Shown: positions 1 through 3,000 of the stretch, piece after piece
How the letters are laid out: the number at the start of each line of letters is the position of its first letter
Numbering within the stretch: position 1 is the stretch's first letter
IMG/VR virus record: IMGVR_UViG_2537562192_000006
Length of the DNA stretch: 4,423 bases
Direction: 5' to 3' (one strand)
Origin: a virus
Taxonomy: Duplodnaviria; Heunggongvirae; Uroviricota; Caudoviricetes
Position numbers: made by a program

Positions 1-3000
1 GAGAAAAGCCGTAAACGTGCAGATGCAGGTATTGCAGGAGCAATGGCGATGACTGCCATTCCTGTTGTTGAGGGTAAAACGTACTCCTTTGGTATGGCTG
101 CAAGTAACTACCGTGATGAGCAGGCTATCGCAGCAGGTATGCACTTCCGCACCACTGAAAATTCTGCTGTACGTTTGAATGCTTCATGGGATACCCAGAA
201 CGGTTCAGGTGTTGCTGCGGGTATGTCTGTCGGCTGGTAATTTATTTTTTGCGGAGAACGCCAGCCGTGTTGGTTATCGGAAGCGTTCTCCGTCATCCTT
301 CTGTCGCTGAAGACACAGCACAGTCACATTGTTCTTTTTTGTGGTGAGAGTGTGAGTGAAAAAATTCTCCGGTATATGCAGCGTGTGGTGAGAAATTCCC
401 GCAACCCTGAATTTATGAATGAAGTTAAAGACGCCTGCTTTAAAAAGCAGGCGTTTTGTTTTGAGGCACCTGATGGCTTTCTGGTGCTGCGTTCTGTGCT
501 CAGTGCTGATGGTATCCCTTATGTTCTGGTGTTGCTGGGCGTGTGTACGGGGAGTAACAGTGTTGAGCGTTATCTGCCGGAGGTGAAGACATTAACCCGT
601 CTGGCTGGCGGACGTTGGGCTGAATTTCATACGGCAAGGCGGGGATTTATCCGGCTGGGAAAACGTCTGGGCTTTGAGCGAATGCCGGATGATGAGGATG
701 GCTTCATGGTGTTCAGGATAGCGGTCTGACTGCCACAGTTTTCATCATCGTGTTTAAACCAACATTGCAATTCACATTCTGACCCTGCTCCGGCAGGGTT
801 TTTTTATTATCCAGGGGGCCATTATGGGTGGAAGTAAAGGTGGTGGTGATACCAAAGTAAAACCAACAGCAGCGCAAATAGCACAGGAAGAAGTGGCCTG
901 GAAAGGGTGGCAGGATTACAAAAATATCCTCCGCCCGGCTGAAGATAACTTCATGGAAAAGGTCGATGACCTGAACAGTGAGCAGCAGTACGACAATATT
1001 GCTGGCACCACAAATCTGGGGTATCAAAAACAGTTTGGCGAAGCGCGGAAGGAGCTGGCAAGTAATCTCACTCGGTCCGGTGTTGACCCGTCCAGTGGTC
1101 GCTTTAACGCGGTAATGAATGCGAACCAGAGTGATCAGGTAACCGGGCAGATTGACACAACCACACGGGGGCAGGTATCGCAGGCAGATAAGTATGTTGC
1201 CGGGCTACAGGATGTTGCTGCTCTCGGTTCTGGTCAGAAGGCGGATGCGTTACAGAGTTTTAACTCTCTGGCAGACAGCAGTCTGGCAAAAGCTAAATCG
1301 GATGCACAGGCGGCGTTTACGAAACAGCAGGGGCGAGCCTCTCTTGTTGGCGCTGGTCTGGGTGCGGCAGGTGCGTACGCGATGCATAAGGCTGGCGGTA
1401 GCGGAGGAAGTGGCGGTGCTAAAACACCTGGCACTGGCGCTAATGCCATTCAGCATCAGGCTCAGAACTGGAGACTGTGATTATGGAGTACGGTAAATAC
1501 GAAACACTTGCGAGATACGGTTATACCGGAGCAGCCCGCCCTCAGGGGGACTGGCAGACATCCGCAGCGCTGACCCGCCAGCAATACGACGACTGGCGCA
1601 CCAGATATTTACCCCGTGTAGCAAGGCTGGCTGACCTTGGGGAGAACAACAGTCTGATGAATCCACAGCTTGCACGGGTGGGAGGCCTTGCCACTTCCAG
1701 TCTCCGTACAGCGCAGATGGCGCAGGATAACCAGATGGCGAGATACGGGGTAAGCCGCCCGGATAATCCCGACAGTAATACGCTGGGGTTACGTAATGCC
1801 CTGGCAATAGCAGGTGCGAAAAATGGTATCCGTGAAGCCGAACAGGATCGCCAGATGAATATTCTGACGGGGGCTTCTGCACCGGCAAGACAGAAACTGA
1901 GTGTTGGCGGACAACTGGTGGCAGCGTAAGGGGGCAATATGGGATACGGTTTACTGGATATTGCAAATCAGTCGCGGCGTGAGGCATTACAGGGAATAAG
2001 TGACGCAGACAGACGACGCACAGAGATTGAGGCATCAAATAAACAACTGGCTGCTCAACAGAAAGCTCAGAAAAAACAGAATATCAGTACGGGCATTGGT
2101 ACGGGGGCGGCTATTGGTGCATCCGTTGGTGGTCCTGTTGGTGCTGTTGCTGGTGCAGTAATTGGCGGCATTGCAGGCGCTTTGTTTTAAGGAGTGGTGA
2201 ATGAGCGGATTTGCACAGGGGTTACTTGCCGGATTCAGCACTGTTGACCAGGCAATGACCCGTCGTAAGGAGCTTGGTTTGCGAGAAGCACAGCTTGCTC
2301 AGCAACAGAAAAATAACGAGCGCGATTTTGAATTTGCGCAGTCTCAGTTTGAACATAATAAAGACGTTGATCAGCGGAACTTTGATTACAGAGCCAAAGT
2401 TGATGACCGCAATTACACACTGCAGGAAAGGGAGTTTAACGCCAACCAGAATTACCGGAATGCGTCGCTGGGGATGGAACAGCAACGACTCCAGTTGCAG
2501 AAATACAACCAGCGACGGCTTGAGTATAACGATATGCTGGCGCGCGATCAGCCTGTGATGGCGGCGCTGGGAAAAGCGATTGATGCGGGTGACCATGATG
2601 CGGCTTCTCATCTGTTCGGTAAATTATCGGACGCCAATCCGCTTAAGATGATGTCAACGGTAGGCTATGCTGCGAAAGCGGGTCAGGCCGTGAACAACCT
2701 GCAGAAAATCTTTGATGATAAGCCGGACAGGGCGATTGCTTCGCTGAATACCCCGGAAAATCTCGATGTGTTTTCCGGCGTGTTTGCCCCGGAACTACAA
2801 CAGCGTATTGGCATGCCTGATTCAACCGGGGAAAAGACAATAAAAGAGGCCAGGATTGGCAGTATCGTACCGGCGCAGCAGGAAGGGTACGTACTTATTG
2901 GCCTTGATCTCACATACAGCGATGGCTCCACTGCGCATAAACCTGTAACAGAATATGGCAGTGCGCACCCTGATGATCAAAACGTGCTGGCGATACCCGT

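Follow-up and report, generated by a model that had tools for sequence, protein, structure and literature searches.

Within the 4,423-nucleotide stretch of DNA analysed here (the window; IMG/VR record IMGVR_UViG_2537562192_000006, Caudoviricetes), which represents the late region of a 933W-type Shiga-toxin (Stx) phage of the Sepvirinae, a palindrome followed by a T tract lies inside the open reading frame (ORF) at 352-729. As comparison across the gene family shows, hairpin and T tract are under strong purifying selection at the nucleotide level, and the conserved peptide that they encode, ACxKKQAFCF, is explained by this selection on the nucleic acid and not by protein function. The reading that we favour, with a probability of about 0.5, is that the element is a plus-strand intrinsic (Rho-independent) terminator within a genuine gene of predicted GNAT fold, where it would insulate the virion module downstream and be read through by Q-modified polymerase. 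The extreme nucleotide-level conservation of hairpin and tract across genera is new with respect to the initial annotation of this DNA, being invisible from the window alone. The features on which the argument turns are the following:

343-347, plus strand: GGTGA, Shine-Dalgarno (SD)-like element of GTG352, where the homology to 185 other Stx phage records begins.
352-729, plus strand: protein-coding gene of 125 amino acids with a compact, modelled GNAT-like fold, family phrog_610.
430-462, plus strand: synonymous-constraint block, codons 27-37 of the ORF.
431-454, plus strand: hairpin, with arms at 431-441 and 444-454.
455-462, plus strand: T tract TTTGTTTT, a U tract in the RNA, coding for Phe-Cys-Phe.

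More than 130 homologous loci with DNA were collected, and a codon alignment was made of 33 representatives with less than 97% nucleotide identity. Codons 27-37 are the lowest 11-codon window of the gene, with a synonymous diversity of 0.047 versus a gene mean of 0.47, a minimum that none of 20,000 column permutations reached. Codon by codon the diversity in this block is 0.00-0.08, except for 0.23 at the TGY codon, while it is mostly 0.5-0.8 at invariant residues elsewhere in the same genes, and for columns of invariant amino acid it amounts to 0.043 inside the block versus 0.60 outside (Mann-Whitney p = 2e-5). The 33-nucleotide block (GAC GCC TGC CGT AAA AAG CAG GCG TTT TGC TTT) is furthermore 100% identical in metagenomic relatives at about 43% protein identity. 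All 33 representatives have TTT for both Phe codons of the tract, other Phe columns mixing TTT and TTC, while the codons directly 5' of the stem vary normally, and this asymmetry, with constraint on the tract and none on the 5' flank, is as expected for a hairpin with a U tract on the plus strand. Hardly any variation is seen in the stem, 97.9% of cells being paired among 30 distinct relatives, and the loop codons change mostly by replacement (CGT, CTT, CAT or TTT for R, L, H or F; AAA, GAA, AAC or CAA for K, E, N or Q).

A divergent sister subfamily with the same gene order (a tail-fibre-like gene, the ORF, then proteins of about 220, 127, 87 and 460 amino acids) provides a comparison. Its peptide at the hairpin site is variable (AVADGRAFIF, AIAKGEAFCF, AVENGNAVIF, AVSRGDACVF and others), and in this subfamily there is no folding excess over synonymous recodings (P = 0.12-0.77). 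Since the sister peptide is free to vary and no hairpin is selected there, the protein as such has no need for ACxKKQAFCF, and it is the nucleic-acid element that has frozen the peptide of the main clade. The idea of a structurally equivalent hairpin in the sister subfamily was rejected, as there is no excess structure overall. In an intermediate sequence (L222, with the peptide ACRQGRAFCI) the same left arm pairs with a different right arm, which is followed by GTTTTGTA, and in the distant homologues of Vibrio phages (28% identity), which share the gene order, inspection by eye shows a weak hairpin of 5 base pairs at most. About 100 Vibrio phage records carry this 28%-identical homologue, for example L224 at 3953-4348 (Vibrio phage D459, OZ195923.1), in the order tail fibre, ORF, three small genes, a protein of about 470 amino acids and a giant gene of 9 kb, and the module therefore reaches well beyond the Enterobacterales.

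In form the element is an intrinsic terminator. It consists of ACGCCTGCTTT (431-441), AA (442-443), AAAGCAGGCGT (444-454) and TTTGTTTT (455-462), encoding as codons 27-37 the peptide ..DACFKKQAFCF.., and 431-454 is the top short-range inverted repeat of the whole window, the palindrome and T tract being exactly as the initial annotation had described them. The realistic stem has 10 base pairs and a loop of 4 nucleotides in the present phage, and most relatives have an 8-base-pair stem ACGCCTGC/GCAGGCGT (6 G-C) with an 8-nucleotide loop (-13.9 kcal/mol). Positions 415-475 fold at -21.6 kcal/mol (z = -4.5), an energy that none of 200 shuffles attained, and the hairpin alone has -16.0 kcal/mol, where the intergenic terminators reach -14.5 kcal/mol (781-800) and -12.4 kcal/mol (3509-3528). 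Seven of the first 8 bases of the tail are T, which gives a tail score of -4.65 on the plus strand versus -2.88 on the minus strand, the scores of the window's intergenic terminators being -5.19 and -5.53; a consensus scanner listed the palindrome on the minus strand only, the T-rich tail is however on the plus strand. The GC-rich stem of about 5-14 base pairs with a loop of 3-8 nucleotides and the U-rich tract directly 3' of it, which are the marks of an intrinsic terminator, are both found here, and the anatomy of hairpin and tract matches that of the window's two intergenic terminators. The suggestion that this is a strong intrinsic terminator thereby holds for every sequence feature and for the values attached to them.

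The neighbouring elements that bear on its position are these:

1-240, plus strand: 3' end of the gene of a YadA-like trimeric autotransporter adhesin (403 amino acids; Pfam matches YadA_head and YadA_anchor), a moron.
252-292, plus strand: hairpin 3' of the adhesin stop, with a 21-nucleotide loop and without a T tract, not a canonical terminator.
781-807, plus strand: second intrinsic terminator, intergenic, directly 3' of the ORF and common to a Citrobacter relative.

No canonical plus-strand terminator was found between the adhesin stop (240) and 431, and since the hairpin is the first such terminator 3' of the adhesin gene, it plausibly ends the adhesin transcript; in ordinary Stx phages it is likewise the first plus-strand terminator 3' of the hok-like gene. 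An adhesin transcript end had been proposed together with a non-coding 5' region of the ORF, and while the former is plausible, the latter disagrees with the homologues, the AlphaFold model and the SD element described below. The tandem terminator at 781-807 is found in E. coli and Citrobacter lineages, with a 23-nucleotide exact match in an otherwise diverged Citrobacter braakii prophage, and in the lineages that have it the downstream module lies behind two tandem terminators.

ORF 352-729 is a genuine gene, its 5' end included. It corresponds to L0129 of 933W, ECs1237 of the Sakai prophage Sp5 and vb_24B_43 of phi24B, and full-length homologues of 119-125 amino acids, in which the N-terminus is covered, are spread over the Enterobacterales (Salmonella, Citrobacter, Yersinia, Serratia, Pectobacterium, Dickeya and others), the lowest identity among them being about 41-45%. 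The N-terminus is present in all homologues and its indels comprise whole codons. An AlphaFold model made from the alignment has a predicted local distance difference test (pLDDT) score of 89.5, the N-terminus being modelled as two helices and strand beta1 with a pLDDT above 83, and the hairpin-encoded residues 27-37 make up the end of helix 2 and strand beta1 in this model. Every top match of a Foldseek search of the PDB is a GNAT (TacT, Naa50, AtaT; E about 1e-3, TM-score 0.5-0.6), and the ORF product, as modelled, has a GNAT fold; Pfam, NCBIfam and PDB sequence searches with the protein gave no match that would place it in a GNAT acetyltransferase family by sequence. The initial annotation had found no good SD at the candidate starts and took this to add to its doubt about the annotated N-terminus. 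Neither objection survives, since GTG352 is preceded by GGTGA with a predicted pairing to the 16S 3' end of -7.4 kcal/mol (-3.7 at ATG376 and -0.9 at ATG415), homologues cover the N-terminus, and in other Stx phages the codon aligned with GTG352 is an ATG with AGGTGA in front of it. The sole in-frame start 3' of the hairpin, GTG484, has no SD. Start annotations disagree, the closest record having ATG376 and other records a form of 133 amino acids. In one prophage (L061, 3001-3219 and 5629-5793) an insertion of about 2.4 kb interrupts the ORF, and in another (L145, minus strand, about 130-190) a deletion joint 9 nucleotides after the T tract fuses the ORF start and hairpin to unrelated sequence; the ORF is apparently dispensable for prophage upkeep.

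The hairpin is closely tied to this gene and its surroundings. All 86 exact copies in IMG/VR lie within homologues of ORF 352-729, which rules out a mobile or repeated element, and the palindrome occurs once per phage region. None of the 185 other Stx phage records lacks the hairpin, and moron-less relatives have it too. The window is 96.8% identical to Escherichia phage phiSTEC1589-Stx1c, and the 185 other Stx phage records match it at 80-95% identity solely from position 343 on, the adhesin gene having been inserted between a hok/sok-like locus and the ORF in the lineage of the present phage, while other Stx phages have the gene order lom, hok-like, ORF. Throughout, the order of tail fibre, variable slot, ORF and then proteins of 218, 148, 83 (glycine zipper) and 420 amino acids and a giant protein is kept, and this module adjoins the most variable late region, with its tail-fibre C-termini and inserted morons (lom, hok/sok and here the YadA-like adhesin). 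A mosaic joint lies 20-60 nucleotides upstream of the hairpin, and in pairs of Pectobacterium and Dickeya sequences the identity rises from 0.41-0.53 before the block to about 0.80 behind it; given the distance of the joint, the conserved block is ruled out as the exact site of recombination.

These observations can be brought together in the terminator reading as follows. The ORF is the first gene of a conserved module, which would be one of virion-internal proteins, and ordinary RNA polymerase arriving from upstream, from moron promoters in the lysogen or from spurious starts, would stop at 455-462, so that the downstream virion module is not expressed. Stx phages require Q antitermination from PR' for their late transcription (PMC7547250), and in lytic growth Q-modified polymerase from PR' would be expected to ignore the terminator. 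Insulation in this sense would mean that the conserved module is shielded from transcription out of a highly exchangeable upstream region. The location inside a gene may be due to there being almost no intergenic space in these operons, and a site inside a conserved gene would also survive the frequent swapping of upstream DNA. The earlier suggestion of an attenuator or antitermination target agrees with this in its second half, since an antitermination target fits the position in a Q-dependent late operon, whereas the features of a leader-peptide attenuator are missing.

Several observations weigh against the terminator reading. In most relatives outside E. coli the ORF begins directly at the stop codon of the preceding gene or overlaps it, and there is no moron slot, so that a firewall against morons cannot be the whole story and is weakened as a universal role. 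No compensatory double changes in the stem were found among the 30 distinct relatives, and as the stem is almost invariant no covariation is to be had; conservation of sequence is therefore indistinguishable from conservation of structure. The single-base variants favour neither strand, since AGC, GAT and TGT give G.U pairs on the plus strand, and GCA (in three lineages) and ACC give C.A mismatches on it. Moreover, the ORF is equipped with an SD, and an intragenic terminator would be suppressed by a ribosome close behind the polymerase (PMC5021804). Finally, the sister subfamily does without the hairpin altogether.

A first rival reading is that the RNA hairpin acts after transcription, either as a barrier to 3' exonucleases or a processing site, by which the mRNA of the upstream tail genes would be more stable than that of the downstream module, or as a structure that slows ribosomes. 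Such a role would make use of a conserved and stable hairpin, would work despite readthrough by Q-modified polymerase and would suit those relatives whose late operon leaves little room around the ORF, but it has no need of a U tract and leaves the invariably TTT Phe codons and the asymmetric 3' extension of the constraint unaccounted for, and translation of the ORF would unwind the hairpin repeatedly, for which reasons we hold it to be unlikely. A translation-gated attenuator, which narrows down the attenuator option of the initial annotation, terminating solely when no ribosome translates the ORF right behind the polymerase and thus tying the downstream module to ORF translation, would agree with a terminator 26 codons into a translated ORF, with the overlap of ORF start and upstream stop in many relatives, suggestive of translational coupling, and with the observation that ribosomes right behind polymerase keep terminator hairpins from forming (PMC5021804). 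It is nevertheless rather improbable, since neither a conserved antiterminator pairing nor regulatory codons are found upstream, the first 26 codons are poorly conserved, and Q-modified polymerase should ignore the signal anyway.

A constraint on double-stranded DNA, with the 8-8-8 palindrome as a protein-binding site or the identical 30-base-pair block as a homologous-recombination anchor for the exchange of tail fibres and morons, would in turn explain why the sequence is frozen without covariation and why single variants favour no RNA strand, and the mosaic joint just upstream, with the step in identity seen in Pectobacterium and Dickeya, points the same way. The synonymous invariance reaches into the T tract on one side only, however, the joint is not at the palindrome, the palindrome is confined to a single copy per phage region and to this gene, and selection for recombination potential is a weak evolutionary force, which together make this explanation as improbable as the preceding one. 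That the palindrome is a mere by-product of a conserved protein motif and codon bias, devoid of any nucleic-acid function, could be argued from the Phe-Cys-Phe of strand beta1, which is T-rich under any codons, and from AAA, CGT and GAT being favoured codons. This notion has very little left to recommend it and is already contradicted, since synonymous diversity lies about ten-fold below that of invariant residues in other parts of these genes, hairpins as stable as the real one are rare among synonymous recodings of the 11-residue peptide (P = 0.001-0.015) and the sister-subfamily peptide varies freely. There is still less reason to believe that the 5' part of the ORF is non-coding and that the true gene starts after the terminator: the GTG start and the conflicting start annotations could be taken to hint at it, but it is contradicted by the N-terminus of all homologues, by the modelled fold and by the lack of an SD at GTG484.

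Comparison with known systems places the element among intrinsic terminators embedded in coding sequence, in form at least, and the overlap of constraints on RNA and protein has left an unusually clear signature in it. The moron concept is that of Juhala and Hendrix (as cited in PMC4104026). Like the terminators that insulate morons in lambdoid late operons, and which Q antitermination overrides, the present element combines a GC-rich hairpin with a U tract in a Q-dependent late region beside lom, hok and adhesin morons. It differs from them in being inside the coding sequence of a conserved resident gene and not in inserted DNA, the adhesin insertion ending before 343, and furthermore in being kept in moron-less relatives and conserved in nucleotide sequence across genera, whereas moron terminators are intergenic and lineage-specific. 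The T7 terminator T-phi after gene 10 and the f1/M13 terminator after gene VIII are internal step-down terminators of phages. They resemble the present hairpin in lying between highly expressed structural genes and low-copy downstream genes of one operon, but they are intergenic and the polymerases concerned are not terminator-resistant, whereas Stx phage Q should suppress the hairpin here. With leader-peptide attenuators of the trp and pheA type the element shares a terminator shortly after a translation start, but the product is a folded protein of 125 amino acids, there is no short leader, there are no regulatory codons and no conserved antiterminator alternative is found; with 26 upstream codons and a 5' flank that are not conserved, this class was rejected. 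ORF-internal small RNAs such as FtsO are known in E. coli. The ORF-internal 3' ends and intragenic terminators of E. coli that are masked by coupling (PMC5021804) are likewise terminator-type hairpins in translated ORFs, where the proximity of ribosomes is expected to modulate the outcome; the present hairpin, as a putative terminator, differs from them in standing out by the depth of its synonymous conservation and by driving the conservation of a protein motif.

Other candidate functions were also considered. A programmed -1 frameshift site of the dnaX or IS type, for which a zero-frame heptamer X XXY YYZ and a stimulatory hairpin 5-8 nucleotides further 3' are required, was rejected on frame, position and missing conservation: the zero-frame T AAA AAG (C-TTT-AAA-AAG) sits in the hairpin loop and not 5' of the hairpin, and relatives have AAC AAG or CAA CAG at the position of AAA AAG. 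The 3' end of a small RNA, which had been raised as a further option, is conceivable but draws no support from the data: there is no conserved promoter upstream of the hairpin and no match to an Rfam family, and because the upstream DNA is unrelated between groups, a conserved dedicated promoter is excluded. An Rfam 15 scan of the window and ArgO145 gave no family at gathering score for the hairpin, the matches over 356-507 being sub-threshold and at chance level (RsaE, 27 bits with a cut-off of 79; GlmZ, 20 with a cut-off of 60). Hfq-bound RNAs from both strands of the lom-ECs1237 spacer have been listed for strain Sakai (PMC4104026 supplement), the only relevant listing in that supplement on Hfq crosslinking and analysis of cDNA (CRAC), and they count in favour of the terminator reading. 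Term-seq of strain Sakai exists (GSE143631; PMC7547250), in whose genome (NC_002695.2) the U tract lies at about 1,292,943-1,292,951. Nothing relevant was found in the literature on ECs1237, L0129 and vb_24B_43, and no prior description of the hairpin was found there. The hairpin is not the small RNA 24B_1 of phi24B, which maps about 370 nucleotides upstream, on the opposite strand, in the hok/sok-like locus.

This published 'microRNA-size' RNA (PMC4426718) lies at about 3697-3716 of L002 on the minus strand (HM208303 45711-45692), between lom and the ORF, where it is antisense to the leader of a hok-like mRNA and within a sub-threshold Rfam match to sok (L002 3640-3802). The paper makes no mention of hok, and 24B_1 may have arisen as a fragment of an antitoxin RNA resembling Sok.

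Further downstream in the window, the gene of the giant virion protein (start at 3548) is interrupted within 4075-4100, where two single-base insertions relative to the closest relative, near 4080 and 4094, result in a TAG stop at 4097-4099, the cause being either prophage decay or a sequencing error. The protein of 83 amino acids (1939-2190) has a C-terminal glycine zipper, with a match to Pfam Gly-zipper_YMGG below the curated cut-off, and despite its RefSeq label 'bacteriocin' it can with more likelihood be taken for a small membrane or virion protein belonging to the module. In the closest GenBank record, PQ600364.1, several genes are misannotated, namely the YadA-like adhesin (3029-4240; window 1-240) as 'terminase large subunit', the GNAT-like ORF (4376-4729; window 376-729) as 'portal protein' and the glycine-zipper protein (5939-6211; window 1939-2190) as 'N4-family major capsid protein'.

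The hairpin is found in essentially every 933W-type Shiga-toxin phage (186 sequenced records) and also in related prophages of Salmonella, Citrobacter, Yersinia, Serratia, Pectobacterium and Dickeya. RNA and protein codes overlap here in a clean natural example, for which the sister subfamily lacking the hairpin serves as a built-in control, and for annotation the hairpin teaches that a strong terminator within an ORF is no ground for discarding the ORF. It is conceivable, if doubtful, that the hairpin is more broadly a regulatory checkpoint within coding sequence, such that the module of virion-internal or ejection proteins would be expressed given antitermination or tight coupling of transcription and translation, and that an RNA signal would dictate a ten-residue motif across at least four families of Enterobacterales phages, all 933W-type Shiga-toxin phages included. 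If it does terminate transcription, the hairpin marks the transcript ends of genes expressed in the lysogen (lom, hok/sok and adhesins), and it would likewise explain the silence of the downstream late structural genes in the lysogen.

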